The position numbers and the translations under genes were made by a program. Shown here piece by piece: positions 13,823 through 34,210 of a DNA stretch of 39,700 nucleotides. Source of the stretch: Burkholderiales bacterium (GTDB lineage: Bacteria; Pseudomonadota; Gammaproteobacteria; Burkholderiales; Eutrophovitaceae); NCBI GenBank assembly GCA_035512195.1, contig DATKEK010000139.1:1-39700 (forward strand), in the 5' to 3' direction. Position 1 is the stretch's first letter; each line of letters opens with the position of its first letter. Under the pieces are notes generated by a model. That model did not search any database, had not been told where the DNA came from, and saw nothing but the letters and a program-made list of their open reading frames with translations.

Positions 13823-14064
13823 CACCATCTCCTTCAGGGGATCTTTTCGAATCCCGTGTAGATGCCTTTTATAACGCATCTGCTGCAGATTTGGATACCA
13901 CGCGCGCACCCCGCGTTCCCTTCGCTCGAGGGTGACGCCTTTCGCCGAAAACCGCGGCTTGTGGCTACGGCCCGTGGCTGTCACGCACTTACCGCAAGCT
14001 GGCGCGAGCGTTAGCCTGCAGCGCAGGCCTGTGGCCCCGTAAACGTCTGTCGGACTGCGGGCAG

Positions 14065-15894
<1,830 letters not shown>

Positions 15895-16042
15895 GGAAGA
15901 GTTCAGGGACGAAGGTTGAGGGTGGAAGGATGCAGGCTGACGACGGCCGCAACCCGCTGCGCGGGTAAACCGCTTACGCGGGATGCAAACCGCGGCGATG
16001 GACAAGCCGCCGGTGCCGACCCGCGGTCGGCGAATTCATCTT

Positions 16043-30226: not shown

Positions 30227-32335
30227 ATGCCAGGAAACCCGCGTCCGACAAGCCACACGGCGCTGTCAGCGCTCCCGATAGTCGTGCTCGATCTGGAAAC
30301 GACCGGCCTCGACGTGCGGCACGACCGGATTGTGCAGGTGGGCGCCGTTGCCATGCGTGGCCCGCGCATTCTGGACGCTTCGCGACTCAACCAGATGATC
30401 GATCCGGGTGTCCCGATCCCCGCGTCTGCCACGCGCATTCACGGACTGTCCGATGCCGACGTTGCCGGCGCACCGCGCTTCGCAGTCTACGCGGAGACCC
30501 TGTGCGCGGCCCTGTCCGGCTGCGCAGTCGTCGGGCACAACATCGCCTTCGACCTGGCCGTGCTGCGGCACGAGGCGGCTCGCGCGGGGATCCCGTGGCA
30601 CGATCCGCCTGCGCTGGATGTGGCGCTCCTCGTCGGCGCACTGGAACCGTCGCTGCCCGACCTCGGGCTCGAAACCGTGACTCGCCTGCTCGGCGTTACC
30701 ATCCACGGGCGCCACTGTGCGCTTGGCGATGCCTTGGCCACGGCCGAAGCGTTCGCGGCACTGGTCCCGCGCCTGAGAGATGCGGACGTGCGCACATTGG
30801 GGGAAGCTCGGTCCTTTGCCGCCAGTCGGGCGGACCTGGGAATCCGCCACACGGAGGCGGGCTGGACATCGCGGCCGGGCGAGACCGCAAGCGCGTTGCC
30901 GGCACCCTTGCTCACGCGTATCGACAGTTATGTGTTCGAGCGGCGCCTGAGCGAGCTGATGACCGCGCCGCCGGTTACCGTTGCACGCGACACGACGCTG
31001 CGCGAGGCGGCACGTGTCATGGCCGTGGGGCGGATCGGTGCGTTGCTGGTCGGTTCGGCCGGTGCAGCGCCCGAAGGCATCCTGACCGAGCGGGATCTGC
31101 TGCGCGTTGCTGCCGCCGGCGAGAAACTGGATGCGGTCACGGTGTCGCACGCGATGACGACGCCGGTGGAAACGATAAGCGAGCACGAAATGCTCTACCG
31201 CGCGCTCGGGCGTATGCAGCGACTGGGGATACGGCACCTGTGCGTGATCGACGAACTGGGCCATGCCGCGGGAATGATCTCGCAACGCGACCTGCTGCGC
31301 CATCGCGCCGGCGAAGCGGACGTGCTCGGCGACGCGCTGCAGCAGGCGCACGACGCATCATCGCTCGCTGCCGCATACAGTCTGGTGCCCGAGGCGGCTG
31401 CGCGTCTGGTGGCCGAAGGGCTGGGCGGCGTGGAGGTCGCGCAGGTGGTGTCGAACGAGCTGCGCGAACTCACCGCGCGGGCGGCCGCGATCACGCAGGC
31501 GCGCCTCAGGGAGCAGGGCCGCAGTGAGGCTCCCGCACCCTGGTGCCTGCTGGTGCTCGGCTCGGGCGGGCGCGGCGAAAGCCTGCTCGGCGCCGACCAG
31601 GATAACGCGCTGATTCATTCCGGCGCTGCAGCCGACGATGCCTGGTTCGCGGAATTCGGCACTGGCATCGCCGCACTGCTCGACGAGGCCGGCGTGCCGC
31701 GCTGCAAGGGTGGCGTGATGGCGGCGAATGCCGGATGGCGCGGGACGCTTGAGGACTGGCGTGCGCGCGTCGATCACTGGCTGAGCCGCGCGCGGCCGGA
31801 AGATCTGCTGAACGTCGACATCTTCTTCGATCTGATGCCGGTGGCAGGAGAGACTCGCCTCGCGCGTACGCTGCACGCCGAGGCGGTCATTGCGTCGTCG
31901 CGGACGCCTGCGTTCATCGCGCTGCTCGCGGAATGGGTCGGGACGCTGACACCCGCGATCGGCGTGTTCGGCCGGTTCGTCACCGAAGCGGGCCGCATCG
32001 ACCTGAAGCGGGGCGGGCTGCTGCCGCTGGTCAACGTCGCGCGCACGCTTGCGCTGCGTAGCGGTTCGGTGGCGCGCGCGACTCCCGACCGGCTGCGCGA
32101 TGCCGCGGCGGCCGGACGTCTTTCCGAGGGCGATGCTGCGACTCTCATCGAGATGCACTCGGAACTGCTCACGCTGGTGCTGCGGCAGCAGCTGGTCGAT
32201 CTCGCGGAGGGCGTGCGGCCATCGAGCCGGGTGCCGGTCAGGACGCTGGGAAAAGAGCAGGCGCGCCGACTGCGCAGCCAAATGCGCACACTCGATCAGG
32301 TCCTGCGCACGTTGCGCGGGTCTGTCGCTTCGTAA
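30227..32335 (+). CDS. fusion protein: DEDDh 3'-5' exonuclease (DnaQ/epsilon-like) + CBS pair + DUF294 nucleotidyltransferase + DUF294_C
   Basis: Exo I VVLDLETTG, Exo II VVGHNIAFDLAVL, Exo III HCALGDALATAEAF. Two CBS repeats (...GILTERDLLRV; ...GMISQRDLLRH). NTase motif LGSGGRGESLLGADQDNALI. Confidence 0.8.
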   Translation: MPGNPRPTSHTALSALPIVVLDLETTGLDVRHDRIVQVGAVAMRGPRILDASRLNQMIDPGVPIPASATRIHGLSDADVAGAPRFAVYAETLCAALSGCAVVGHNIAFDLAVLRHEAARAGIPWHDPPALDVALLVGALEPSLPDLGLETVTRLLGVTIHGRHCALGDALATAEAFAALVPRLRDADVRTLGEARSFAASRADLGIRHTEAGWTSRPGETASALPAPLLTRIDSYVFERRLSELMTAPPVTVARDTTLREAARVMAVGRIGALLVGSAGAAPEGILTERDLLRVAAAGEKLDAVTVSHAMTTPVETISEHEMLYRALGRMQRLGIRHLCVIDELGHAAGMISQRDLLRHRAGEADVLGDALQQAHDASSLAAAYSLVPEAAARLVAEGLGGVEVAQVVSNELRELTARAAAITQARLREQGRSEAPAPWCLLVLGSGGRGESLLGADQDNALIHSGAAADDAWFAEFGTGIAALLDEAGVPRCKGGVMAANAGWRGTLEDWRARVDHWLSRARPEDLLNVDIFFDLMPVAGETRLARTLHAEAVIASSRTPAFIALLAEWVGTLTPAIGVFGRFVTEAGRIDLKRGGLLPLVNVARTLALRSGSVARATPDRLRDAAAAGRLSEGDAATLIEMHSELLTLVLRQQLVDLAEGVRPSSRVPVRTLGKEQARRLRSQMRTLDQVLRTLRGSVAS

Positions 32336-32368
32336 CGAGGGCGGTCGTTGTCGCGGCCGGTGCCAAGG

Positions 32369-32397
32369 TTGGTCGCGACGCGGTTTCTCCGTATAAT
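32369..32397 (+). promoter_or_regulatory. sigma70 promoter of the tRNA-Phe locus
   Basis: TTGGTC (32369-32374), 17-nt spacer, perfect TATAAT (32392-32397), followed by a GC-rich discriminator gcgcgg. Confidence 0.6.
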
Positions 32398-32444
32398 GCG
32401 CGGCTTCGCGGGCCGACGTTTCCCGCGATGCCCGCATCAACAGC

Positions 32445-32479
32445 GTCCAAGTAGCTCAGTTGGTAGAGCAGAGGACTGA
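32445..32479 (+). pseudogene. copy of tRNA-Phe positions 1-35 (5' half, ends inside the anticodon)
   Basis: 32447-32479 is 33/33 identical to 32750-32782 of the intact tRNA-Phe. Position 2 is G->T. Identity stops after G34-A35. Confidence 0.9.
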
Positions 32480-32502
32480 CAAGATGCTGCGATAGCAGCC
32501 TC

Positions 32503-32732
32503 TTGCGGCGAAGACTGACCTTTCGCGAAGCGCAAGGTTATGTCGAAGTCACAACACGCCGCCTTGGCGGTTTGTTGCGGCGAAGACTAACCTGCGTAGC
32601 AGGTTAAGGAGCGTAGCTCCGGCCGGAGTCAAAATACGCCATGAGTATGACGTATTTCAGTGAAGGCTAACCTGCGCAGCAGGTTAAGGACCGAAAGGTC
32701 CGGCCGAAGCTAAAATCCGGCACCCCGCCGGA
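32503..32732 (+). repeat. three tandem 72-82 nt structured modules (candidate ncRNA) between the tRNA fragment and tRNA-Phe
   Basis: ttgcggcgaagact is repeated exactly at 32503 and 32575. A 28-nt core at 32583-32610 matches 32663-32690 at 26/28. Each module folds as closing helix plus 2-3 hairpins, with compensatory changes between copies. Confidence 0.8.
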
Positions 32733-32747
32733 GAGCGTTGTAACCGG

Positions 32748-32823
<76 letters not shown>

Positions 32824-32953
32824 TTTCCTTCCTCGTTCAGCATCTCTTCAGTTTTTCCGCTGCCGACGCCTTTTGGCGGAGGTCATGCACCCCGCTTTTG
32901 CCTTATAATCTGCGGCCTTGCACGCGCTCCCCGGCGTTGCGCCCCTTCCCTGT

Positions 32954-34210
32954 ATGCAGCAGCTTTTCGCGTTCGGCGTCAATCATCACACCGCTCCGGT
33001 CGACGTGCGGGAGCAGCTTGCGTTCGGCCCGGAGAACCTGGCGCCCGCGTTGCGCGACCTGGTGGAACACGAACCGGTGAACGAAGCTGCGATCGTTTCC
33101 ACCTGCAATCGCACCGAGATCTACTGCAACACGCAGGAACCGGCGCGCGCGGTCGACTGGCTGGCGCGCTTTCACCATATCAACTCCAGCAGCATCGAGC
33201 CGTTCATCTACCTGCTGCCTCGAGAACGCGCGGTGCAGCATGCGTTCCGGGTTGCCAGCGGCCTGGACTCGATGGTGATCGGCGAGCCGCAGATTCTCGG
33301 TCAGCTCAAAGACGCAGTGCGCAGCGCCGAGCAGGCCGGCACGCTCGGCACGGTGTTGCATAAGCTGTTCCAGTCGACGTTCTCGATCGCGAAGGAAGTG
33401 CGCACGCATACCGATATCGGCGCGAACTCGGTATCGATGGCGGCGGCAGCGGTCAAGCTGGCGGAGCGCATCTACCCGTCGATCTCCGAACAGCGGCTGC
33501 TGTTCATCGGCGCGGGCGAGATGATCGAGCTGTGCGCCACGCATTTCGCGGCCCGGCGTCCGCGTTCGATGATGTTCGCGAACCGCACACTGGAACGCGG
33601 CGAAGACCTTGCGCGGCGCTTCAGCGCGGCATCGATCACGCTGAATGATCTGCCCGAGCAGCTGGCGCTGCACGACATCGTGGTGACCTGTACCGCGAGC
33701 CCGCTGCCGATACTGGGCAAGGGGCTGATCGAACGCGCGATCAAGGCGCGCAGGCACCGGCCGATGCTGATGGTCGATCTCGCCGTCCCGCGCGACGTCG
33801 AGGCGGAGGCCGGCGAACTGGACGATGTGTTCCTGTACAGCGTCGACGATCTGGGCAAGATCGTGCAGGAAGGGCTCGACCTGCGCCAGGCCGCGGTCAC
33901 CCAGGCCGAAGCGATCATCACTGCCGGCGTCAGCGACTTCATCCATTGGCTGGAGACGCGCGAGATCGTGCCGACGATACGTGCGCTGCGCGACCATGCG
34001 GAGCGCATGCGCCGCCACGAGTTCGAGCGCGCCATGAAGCAGCTTGCGAAGGGCGAGGACCCGCACAAGGTGCTCGAGCACCTGAGCCACGCGCTCACCA
34101 ACAAGTTTCTGCACGCGCCGACCAGCGCACTGGGACAAGCCGAGTCGAAGGAGCGCGACGCGCTGATGTCTGCGCTGGCGCGTCTGTACCAAGTCCAGCT
34201 TCCGGAATGA
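32954..34210 (+). CDS. hemA: glutamyl-tRNA reductase
   Basis: Start [24 protein letters not shown] at 32954. Active-site-Cys block STCNRTEIY. 418 aa. ATGA overlap with prfA. Confidence 0.95.

Follow-up and report, generated by a model that had tools for sequence, protein, structure and literature searches.

Why do three copies of one folded sequence lie between a broken and an intact copy of the same tRNA gene? This question is raised by a stretch of DNA of 39,700 nucleotides (hereafter, the window) from a Burkholderiales bacterium of an uncultured lineage (GenBank assembly GCA_035512195.1, contig DATKEK010000139.1, positions 1 to 39,700 of the forward strand), in which an array of three homologous tandem units occupies positions 32492-32726, between the 5' half of a tRNA-Phe gene and an intact tRNA-Phe gene. 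A preliminary description, made from the letters of this DNA alone, had regarded the units as RNA-like modules kept by selection on RNA structure. The analysis presented here leads to another answer: the array probably consists of three tandem copies of a dispersed palindromic repeat element of the Betaproteobacteria, lodged in a dead duplicate of tRNA-Phe, and the repeat family is apparently undescribed so far. Since its members occupy many scattered betaproteobacterial sites (after stop codons, inside genes and in the broken tRNA), the element is taken for an uncatalogued small repeat of the mobile type and not for a dedicated riboswitch or ribozyme.

The tandem units themselves are real, as had been proposed. 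A repeat finder places three direct-repeat units (families D1 and D2) at 32503-32732, with a unit spacing of 72 and 80 nt, and a 24-mer core occurs twice in the window versus an expectation of 0.00, so that the repeats are far beyond chance. The units, each built around one or two hairpins (H1 and H2), are the following:

32492-32563, + strand: repeat unit 1, a variant in which H2 is missing; core AGACUGAC at 32511-32518, H1 at 32518-32538
32564-32643, + strand: repeat unit 2; core AGACUAAC at 32584-91, H1 at 32589-32605, H2 at 32608-32620, CCGGCCG at 32619-25
32644-32726, + strand: repeat unit 3, the best copy, whose minimum free energy (MFE) fold reproduces covariance model R1

A Family of Dispersed Repeats

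A degenerate pattern (AGGCTAAC N11-21 GTTAAGG N9-16 CCGGCCG), in which the junction strands are fixed and both hairpins are left free, matches at least 119 stretches in a collection of species-representative genomes; as a rough estimate, a few of these matches are due to chance. They span Burkholderiales, Rhodocyclales, Gallionellaceae, Sulfuricellaceae, Casimicrobiaceae and Alcaligenaceae, and homologues of the units are thus found well outside the strain. Several matches come from a single genome, and two to three tandem copies are common. All statistics on genome loci given below (position, flanks and orientation) rest on the matches listed, that is, on at least 119 loci, and individual loci are referred to by numbers preceded by L.

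Covariance model R1 was built from 117 sequences, and gives 69.8 bits (E=3e-22) to unit 3 of the window, which is itself a member of the training set, and 53.3 bits (E=7e-17) to unit 2. Unit 1, in which H2 is deleted, obtains 25.7 bits with filters on and 19.7 bits with filters off. Over 716 kb of fetched loci, R1 finds 123 matches, 10 of which do not fit the search pattern. A partial match of 21 bits that covers only the junction and part of H2 is also present inside the hemA coding region of the window (33723-33764, + strand); it is probably a chance match or a relic.

The family matches nothing in Rfam 15. At gathering thresholds, Rfam 15 recognizes only tRNA, both in the window and in 18 related loci, which agrees with the earlier statement that no riboswitch, ribozyme, tmRNA or group I intron matches the array. 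At E values up to 10, region 32350-32900 returns the tRNA and one weak reverse-strand match under the intact tRNA, while a consensus-like copy (L038) returns sub-threshold matches only, the best of them to xerDC (18.9 bits versus a gathering score of 72.5). Against plasmids, a BLAST search with the array region yields tRNA matches only and the consensus copy has no plasmid match; the family pattern has 0 matches in viral contigs. A full-text literature search for the conserved words produced nothing relevant, and keyword searches of the literature led only to BRE (Beta-proteobacterial repeat element), by way of the Delihas review, and to reviews on MITEs (transposable elements of miniature size with inverted repeats).

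Structure of the Unit

The unit folds as a Y-shaped three-way junction of approximately 80 bases (roughly 75-90 nt). In its outer helix, P1, a 5' strand nnnUU(U/G)-C-GGC pairs with a 3' strand GCC-A-(A/C)AAnnn and includes a conserved C·A mismatch, as derived from the position frequencies and the pairing matrix of 133 instances. Inside P1 there is a 3x3 internal loop, with G(C/A)A facing G(N)A, followed by a predicted short inner helix, P1b (GGCU/GGCC), and by hairpins H1 and H2, which are joined by AA and mostly capped by GNA triloops. In unit 3, these parts correspond to (i) P1, 32654-32661 with 32709-32716, including the mismatch C32658·A32712; (ii) the internal loop, G32662-A-A versus G32706-A-A; (iii) P1b, GGCU 32665-68 with GGCC 32702-05; (iv) H1, 32669-85; (v) AA, 32686-87; and (vi) H2, 32688-32701. 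In unit 2, P1 and P1b are weakened by mismatches.

The preliminary description had correctly placed H1 (AACCUGC-GNA-GCAGGUU, at 32589-32605 and 32669-32685) and H2 (32608-32620 and 32688-32701), and had seen that unit 1 lacks H2. Its closing helix (GACU/AGUC in one copy and GGCU/AGCU in the other) must be replaced, however, as the family covaries in P1 instead (133 instances). What it had called an AAAAU linker is actually the 3' strand of P1, since P1 of unit 3 pairs 32654-32661 with 32709-32716, and the hairpins which it had named H3 lie outside the unit, in linkers able to pair the P1 strands of neighbouring units. In such an alternative fold, unit n can contribute its P1 3' strand and unit n+1 its P1 5' strand to a shared helix, and folding of the whole transcript selects inter-unit alternatives of this type.

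Covariation was measured on 121 distinct members, in an alignment fitted to the R1 model and hence favouring the structure. Standard pairs fill 93.2% of the cells, as compared to 77.4% in shuffles, and cells with double changes amount to 433 versus 138 expected; none of 500 shuffles reached the observed values (0/500). In controls in which the pairing was slid, only 22-49% of the cells are paired versus the 93.2% of the structure. Double changes affect all nine pairs of P1 (9/9), four of five in H1 and four of five in H2. In consequence, the claim that compensatory changes keep the hairpins of homologous modules is upheld at the scale of the family. Hairpin H1 has 99 distinct sequences among 127 cores, with loops that are mostly GNA triloops closed by C-G. 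As for the inner helix, GGCU (32665-68) most likely pairs with GGCC (32702-05), which lies in what the preliminary description had called the GGCCGR strand, as predicted by both RNAalifold and single-sequence MFE folding, but the two strands are nearly invariant and were fixed by the search pattern, and therefore covariation lends this helix no support.

The stems are 95% Watson-Crick, and G·U pairs (16) are roughly as infrequent as A·C mismatches (11). The MFE fold of unit 3 reproduces the model (z -3.3) and the MFE z-score of unit 2 is -3.7; folding of unit 3 is equally good on either strand. Near-perfect stems, rare G·U pairs and an equal fold of the reverse strand are, taken together, a poor fit to selection on RNA alone.

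Position in Genomes and Flanking Duplications

Genes were called at 119 loci by a simple GC3-based method. Among the matches listed, the upstream gene has the same direction as the element in 84 loci and the opposite one in 21; in 24, a convergent gene comes next. The stop codon lies a median of 30 nt before the core, from which it follows that P1 starts a few nucleotides past the stop; the family as a whole is located some 10-30 nt past stop codons. The upstream genes are unrelated housekeeping genes that encode MetK, GlmS, GroES, PstB, FtsW, DnaJ, ProB and Acs (all Pfam-confirmed), together with others which, judging from their C-terminal sequences, we take to be AccB, RplJ, RpoA, LivH, SucD and Gap. 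In the nuoC-nuoD spacer of two loci (L067 and L094), the copies are antisense to both nuo genes and have an extra GGCCG repeat at their 3' junction, as exceptions to the sense rule.

A riboswitch or other 5' cis-regulator was considered and ruled out, because the element follows the stop codons of functionally unrelated genes and, in the 24 loci just mentioned, stands before a convergent gene. Recurrent downstream strings such as 'aaggaATGcgg', which could be taken as a Shine-Dalgarno sequence and a start codon of a 5' leader, correspond to duplicated gene tails (KECGLH of CysH, TDKAA.. of MetK).

Significant direct repeats flank the element at 51 of 102 loci, where they exceed the 99th percentile of the cross-locus controls. 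The flanking repeat is the 3' end of the upstream gene, usually with its stop codon included, and has a length of 20-170 nt. Its downstream copy (X', as opposed to the upstream copy, X) begins right after the P1 3' strand, and arrays of n units have n+1 copies of the target. In the examples of metK, glmS, dnaJ, gap and tRNA-Phe, the duplicated target begins with A(A/C)AA, which serves at the same time as the outer part of the P1 3' strand; junctions such as G^AAAAC, G^ACAAG and CUG^AAAAUCC were read from examples, with no statistic, and the same applies to the stretch between stop codon and P1, which in the examples inspected is the reverse complement of the target start.

Copies also occur in frame within coding regions. 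In four MdtB-like RND pumps (L039, L063, L071 and L132), the element encodes 29 residues (..VSAQAN..VKG..GRSQN..) where the solved E. coli MdtB has 5, and in six cysH genes for APS/PAPS reductase (L020, L053, L078, L117, L125 and L130) the frame runs from KECGLH through the element into a second KECGLH and a stop codon. KECGLH is the catalytic motif of CysH, and both copies are translated around the element. Among the cores, 76 of 127 are open in the peptide frame, and core lengths modulo 3 are distributed as 52/47/28.

Degenerate and core-deleted copies are common, and Polaromonas metK sites can be filled or empty. In L019, L026 and L132, core-deleted remnants that keep only P1, the internal loop and GGC(C), e.g., UUGCGGCGAAGGCCGAAGCCACAA, stand beside full copies.

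The window itself contains a fourth copy, far from the array:

13948-14037, - strand: fourth family member; R1 35.3 bits, E=4e-9; starts 28 nt after the glmS stop codon and is co-directional with the gene
14065-16005, - strand: glmS, with SIS and GATase domains
13921-13962, - strand: decayed direct duplicate (X') of the glmS 3' end; starts at ACAAG, the outer part of the P1 3' strand

Thermodynamic folding of this copy does not recover the model structure (z = 0.02), and its membership is based on the R1 score and on its orthologous position, as an element has the same position 3' of glmS in L018, L019, L042, L043, L047, L127 and L131. Here, X (14065-14105) reads ACAAGCCGCGAAAUUUGGCGAAGUCAGUCACGGUGGAGUAG and X' reads ACAAGCCGCGGUUUUCGGCGAAAGGCGUCACCCUCGAGCGAA, with an identity of ~66% (counted by hand).

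The tRNA-Phe Site

Apart from the three units, the following features can be distinguished at the tRNA-Phe locus of the window:

32392-32397, + strand: TATAAT, -10 hexamer of a putative tRNA-Phe promoter, followed by a G+C-rich discriminator-like block
32445-32479, + strand: decayed tRNA-Phe copy, 5' half (positions 1-35), with CUGA as its anticodon-loop end
32480-32505, + strand: linker hairpin CAAGA-U-GCUGC-GAUA-GCAGC-C-UCUUG, whose 3' arm extends into the P1 5' strand of unit 1
32716-32732, + strand: hairpin UCCGGC-ACCCC-GCCGGA, 3' of unit 3 and outside the family model; the third H3 of the preliminary description
32748-32823, + strand: intact tRNA-Phe (GAA), found by ARAGORN; 71.6 bits with the Rfam tRNA model

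The tRNA fragment that the preliminary description had noticed upstream of the array is indeed the 5' half of tRNA-Phe, positions 1-35 (32445-32479), although neither ARAGORN nor Rfam calls it as a tRNA. It belongs to a direct repeat of 44 nt (D3; leader and tRNA 5' half), the two copies of which, 32439-32482 and 32742-32785, flank the array and are 91% identical, 6 nt of leader included.

Relatives were compared through fetched loci linked to hemA. One of them, L001 (HemA identity of 98%), contains the half-tRNA and the tRNA together with two units; a half-tRNA with two units is also present in L006-L009 (HemA 82%) and L010 (81%), where the sequences of H1 and H2 have changed with respect to the window and the pairing is kept. 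After the last unit, L006-L010 read AAAAUCCUUGUGUCG, that is, the remaining anticodon loop and the variable region of tRNA-Phe. The array is therefore enclosed by the two parts of an anticodon loop, that of a decayed tRNA-Phe duplicate upstream of the intact gene. The place that is taken in the window by the hairpin at 32716-32732 holds in relatives a remnant of tRNA-Phe positions 36-56, which reads AAAAUCCUUGUGUCGG(U/C)GGUUC in L006, L010 and many metagenome loci. Four other relatives (L012, L014, L016 and L013; HemA 76-83%) have the tRNA-Phe and no array. Fairly close relatives thus differ in whether the tRNA-Phe site is filled or empty.

When metagenome contigs were scanned for the half-tRNA junction, 65 loci were added, 60 of them distinct, with a recurrent order: tRNA-Phe 5' half, CAAC..GUUG hairpin, between one and five units, short leader and, lastly, the intact tRNA-Phe. 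The CAAC..GUUG hairpin, an equivalent of the linker hairpin of the window, is present behind the tRNA half in almost every related locus, tRNA positions 36-56 are often present 3' of the units, and some metagenome loci have two blocks of half-tRNA plus units. Furthermore, the half-tRNA and the adjoining intact tRNA share lineage-specific variants of the acceptor stem. Recombination between the two tRNA 5' halves would excise the array precisely, and such a deletion would fit the empty sites. The layout of the window (half-tRNA, array and tRNA) is thus explained as one case of a recurrent arrangement.

Units without H2 occur in L010, L138, L141 and L160. In the last three, which are metagenome loci, there is an H2-less mini-form, GACU(A/G)ACC-hairpin-GGUUAUGUCGAAGCC, with a period of ~54 nt, in arrays of at most four copies behind the half-tRNA; unit 1 of the window (32492-32563) is of this mini-form type.

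Regarding transcription, the preliminary description had stated that the array is transcribed from the tRNA promoter. A promoter-like block, CCGTATAATGCGC(C/G)GCTTCGCG, is kept upstream of filled (L001, L006 and L010) and empty (L012 and L014) tRNA-Phe sites alike, and no second block of this kind is found between the array and the intact tRNA-Phe; a consensus promoter scan did not call a full -35/-10 promoter at the upstream block. Co-transcription of the array from the tRNA promoter is plausible, as judged from sequence. The array would then be a passenger in a ~340 nt 5' leader of the intact tRNA-Phe, a status suggested by its location in the anticodon loop of the decayed upstream duplicate, and would presumably be freed by the cut of RNase P at the tRNA 5' end. 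We infer that it has no regulatory role specific to the tRNA.

Upstream of the array lie genes for a sodium:solute symporter and for a DUF294/CBS/RNase T protein, while hemA is its neighbour on the downstream side. In the window, positions 30227-32335 encode one protein of 702 aa with RNase_T, CBS and DUF294 domains, which differs from the arrangement in L001 (1-2453; HemA 98%), where a cNMP/CBS/DUF294 protein is followed by a separate RNase_T protein of 228 aa. A block GCCTTATAAT at 32904-32912 of the window, ~40-50 nt 5' of hemA and conserved in L001, L004, L006 and L012, is likely a separate hemA promoter 3' of the tRNA. In L004 (2780-2885) and L005 (HemA 94%), a genomic island 5' of hemA encodes a PIN-domain protein and an N6/N4 methylase fused to an Mrr-type endonuclease; two direct copies of the tRNA-Phe 3' end (GATTCCGCCCTTGGCCACCA) are situated at its hemA-proximal edge, and the island looks like an integration at the 3' end of the same tRNA-Phe.

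The Downstream Gene Tail

Although it stands past a stop codon and the element, X' evolves in the manner of a coding sequence: it differs from X almost exclusively at third codon positions and often keeps the same peptide and stop (33 loci, e.g., L122, L136, L105 and L126). In Polaromonas L122, both copies encode TDKVAALRAAAGL* and differ at 11 of 14 third positions. Two mechanisms were rejected for such copies: (i) readthrough of the stop codon into X', which is excluded because the two stops have no constant frame relation (the spacing between them modulo 3 is 16/9/9, and the frame is often closed); and (ii) adenine mutagenesis of the diversity-generating retroelement type, as the substitutions in L122 are, by eye, of all kinds.

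Nearest-neighbour tests of the 42 nt metK tails and of the gene body were too noisy to tell which copy is foreign. The Polaromonas metK sites give one hint in this respect: empty sites (L203-L219) end with ..AAAGL(N/K)*, with a convergent gene 3-16 nt away, while the filled site of L202 has a functional tail ..AAAGL*, as filled sites elsewhere, followed by a degenerate element and by a second tail, ..AAAVLK*. The downstream copy of L202 thus keeps the extra Lys codon of the empty-site tail of its lineage, which suggests, from sequence comparison, that the upstream copy arrived with the element and that the downstream copy is the resident tail.

Comparison with Known Systems

The nearest described entity is BRE, a G+C-rich repeat of ~75-91 bp (Hot et al., 2011, BMC Genomics 12:207; PMC3110155) that is found in the chromosomes of Bordetella, Polaromonas, Rhodoferax, Delftia and Azoarcus, mostly in intergenic regions but sometimes overlapping gene ends or wholly within open reading frames, and in head-to-tail arrays of variable copy number (PMC3110155). 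In B. pertussis it is transcribed (BprJ1/J2), its function not being known (PMC3110155). Neither a covarying three-way junction nor target duplications are reported for BRE (PMC3110155), and the words GGCTAAC, GTTAAGG, CCGGCCG and GTTAGCC are absent from its published list (supplementary files, PMC3110155). The two are, in short, the same kind of repeat as to size, betaproteobacterial hosts, tandem arrays and intergenic or intragenic sites, but the sequence of BRE is different (TTTTTTTGGCCGCGGGCCGCCCAAGGCAAAAAAGCCCCC..GCAGCGTGGGGG..TTTT). Identity with BRE was consequently rejected, as the conserved words are absent and the sequences are unrelated by eye (no alignment program was used).

The REP and BIME sequences of enterobacteria and pseudomonads are short, G+C-rich, imperfect palindromes, present in hundreds of copies per genome, after stop codons or between cistrons and often clustered; REP stabilize the upstream mRNA and are thought to be mobilized in trans by RAYT transposases. 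But while a REP consists of one hairpin of 20-40 nt, whose 5' GTAG is conserved, and is usually paired with another in inverted orientation, the present element is ~80 nt long, branched and arranged in direct tandem, lacks a conserved GTAG (position frequencies), and has variable stems and long target duplications. A RAYT-associated repeat of the REP type was rejected on the basis of the branched fold of ~80 nt, the lack of GTAG and the direct arrays, the presence of a RAYT gene not being tested.

Small palindromes such as the Rickettsia palindromic elements (RPE) and the intragenic MITEs of the ERIC or Correia type can be inserted in frame into genes and translated as surface loops, and occur in intergenic regions where they are co-transcribed (PMC10969869, PMC3184786). 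In-frame insertion, intergenic sites and co-transcription are points of likeness, and the P1 strands of the present element form imperfect terminal inverted repeats. Nevertheless, the sequences are unrelated and the taxa are others; those MITEs have defined terminal inverted repeats and short duplications such as TA, whereas the duplications described here are variable, reach from 20 to 170 nt and include the stop codon of the gene.

The attC sites of integrons offer another likeness: structure prevails over sequence, they lie directly after a stop codon in the same orientation, and their folded form is a box-bubble-box with a variable terminal structure. Moreover, GGCTAAC...GTTAAGG resembles the attC motif RYYYAAC...GTTRRRY. 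However, attC boxes pair across the whole site of 57-141 nt, while here AAC/GTT closes only the 17-25 nt of H1. An integron attC was rejected on account of these boxes, which close H1 only, and of the housekeeping neighbours; no integrase or cassette array is present in the context, though intI was not searched for.

In the tyrT operon of E. coli, tandem repeats next to a tRNA gene contain duplicated tRNA fragments and are co-transcribed. Those repeats are downstream of the tRNA, carry its 3' end and are not known to belong to a genome-wide structured family.

Weighing the Explanations

According to the reading preferred here, the family behaves like REP, RPE or BRE, as a repeat that is recombinogenic or else mobile without being autonomous. 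Just past stop codons, or in frame inside open reading frames, its copies abut A(A/C)AA targets, each of which becomes the outer part of the P1 3' strand. We infer that mobility or recombination is the cause of its spread. The conservation of the structure is best read as a requirement of the element itself, as folded DNA or RNA, to which a benign or useful effect as a hairpin of the 3' untranslated region (3' UTR) may be added. Several points weigh against this repeat reading: (i) no transposase, RAYT or integrase was found linked to the element, although RAYT presence, intI and a parent insertion sequence were not searched for; (ii) at 20-170 nt, the flanking duplications greatly exceed ordinary target-site duplications in length; (iii) stem sequences differ freely between loci, even in one genome, as would sooner be expected of a structure under selection than of copies made recently from a master element; (iv) the same insertion junction 3' of metK, glmS and dnaJ is found across orders, which could mean ancient functional conservation and not mobility; (v) the strong sense bias and the fixed distance to the stop codon fit an RNA-level role; and (vi) the differences between X and X' fall on codon positions 1/2/3 as 21/11/127 in 33 loci (80% at third positions), a bias that is not explained by simple relic decay. 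Some of these points lead to a serious rival, unlikely as it is on the whole and partly compatible with the repeat reading, in which the element is a compact three-way-junction RNA that functions in cis, in 3' UTRs and between cistrons. Its task would be to stop 3'-to-5' exonucleases, to mark a site of processing or to be bound by a global RNA-binding protein. Selection at the RNA level would maintain it at housekeeping operons that form a regulon, and the copy in the tRNA-Phe leader would be a processing or stability module or a protein sponge. Such a role would account for the sense orientation (84 of 105 scorable loci) and the fixed place a few nucleotides past stop codons, for the orthologous positions (groES/groEL, ftsW/murG, pstB/phoU and accB/accC, and after metK and glmS in several orders), for the strong covariation, and for the conserved junction nucleotides, the C·A mismatch and the G..A/G..A loop, all of which resemble protein or tertiary contacts; besides, small RNAs are transcribed in B. 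pertussis from BRE, an analogous repeat (PMC3110155). It has to face, nevertheless, the lack of a G·U excess over A·C, the equally good fold of the reverse strand, antisense copies such as those at nuoC/nuoD (L067 and L094), in-frame copies within open reading frames, flanking target duplications, empty sites in close relatives and the common degenerate and core-deleted copies. For similar reasons, the claim of the preliminary description that selection acts on RNA structure and not on simple repeat DNA finds no support: the hallmarks of dispersed repeat DNA are there (many unrelated loci, variation in copy number, filled and empty sites, target duplications and in-frame insertions), Watson-Crick pairs make up 95% of the stems, G·U shows no enrichment relative to A·C, and folding is equally good on the reverse strand.

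The element might instead be the recognition or recombination site, in folded form, of a 'gene-tail cassette' made up of a replacement gene 3' end, its stop codon and the three-way-junction module; this is a speculative and rather improbable explanation, to which the Lys codon retained by the downstream copy of L202 gave rise. The cassette would enter just 5' of A(A/C)AA near the end of a gene or, for tRNA-Phe, in the anticodon loop, and would supply a working copy of the displaced part, so that the gene survives and the resident tail stays intact downstream; it would spread between lineages by means of homology on both sides or of a putative trans-acting enzyme. An X' that looks like coding sequence under purifying selection, a metK junction that is identical in several orders, filled and empty sites, and n modules with n+1 target copies would all be explained in this manner. 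Two further explanations deserve very little credence. An insertion specific to tRNA-Phe, be it an intron of the anticodon loop or an element (riboswitch, attenuator or ribozyme) that controls tRNA-Phe expression, is largely refuted and highly improbable, even though the insertion is exactly in the anticodon loop (the classic place of tRNA introns), the 3' flank in relatives continues with tRNA positions 36-56 and the arrangement recurs in 60 distinct metagenome loci. The interrupted copy lacks the 3' half of the T-arm and the 3' strand of the acceptor, and splicing could not therefore yield a tRNA; a group I intron, likewise, would require an intact 3' exon, and the interrupted tRNA has either no 3' half or one cut short near position 56. 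In addition, neither a group I intron (Intron_gpI) nor any other Rfam family matches at E up to 10, the same unit is found at more than 100 loci unrelated to tRNA, and in close relatives promoter and tRNA are the same and the array is absent. Least credible of all is the explanation that a translated peptide repeat (..VSAQAN..VKG..GRSQN..), and not nucleic-acid structure, lies behind the conservation. The in-frame copies in RND pumps and CysH do give a recurring peptide and 76 of 127 cores are open, but a single frame cannot run through most copies because core lengths (52/47/28) fall in all three modulo-3 classes, most copies follow a stop codon, the stems covary at the nucleotide level and the window copies stand in a tRNA leader, so that it is refuted as a general explanation.

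Significance

The family combines a strict conservation of structure with the behaviour of a repeat element, and it is tolerated in essential genes, either because the 3' end of the gene is duplicated or because the element is read in frame. It has no entry in Rfam despite its presence at tens of loci per genome in Burkholderiales, Rhodocyclales and Gallionella-type lineages, and its copies are easily mistaken for a riboswitch, a small RNA or a tRNA intron; model R1 would allow the family to be masked or annotated. If the coding-like evolution of X' did reflect a cassette that carries a replacement gene end, this would represent an unusual means by which a very small element could enter housekeeping genes and a tRNA without doing harm.

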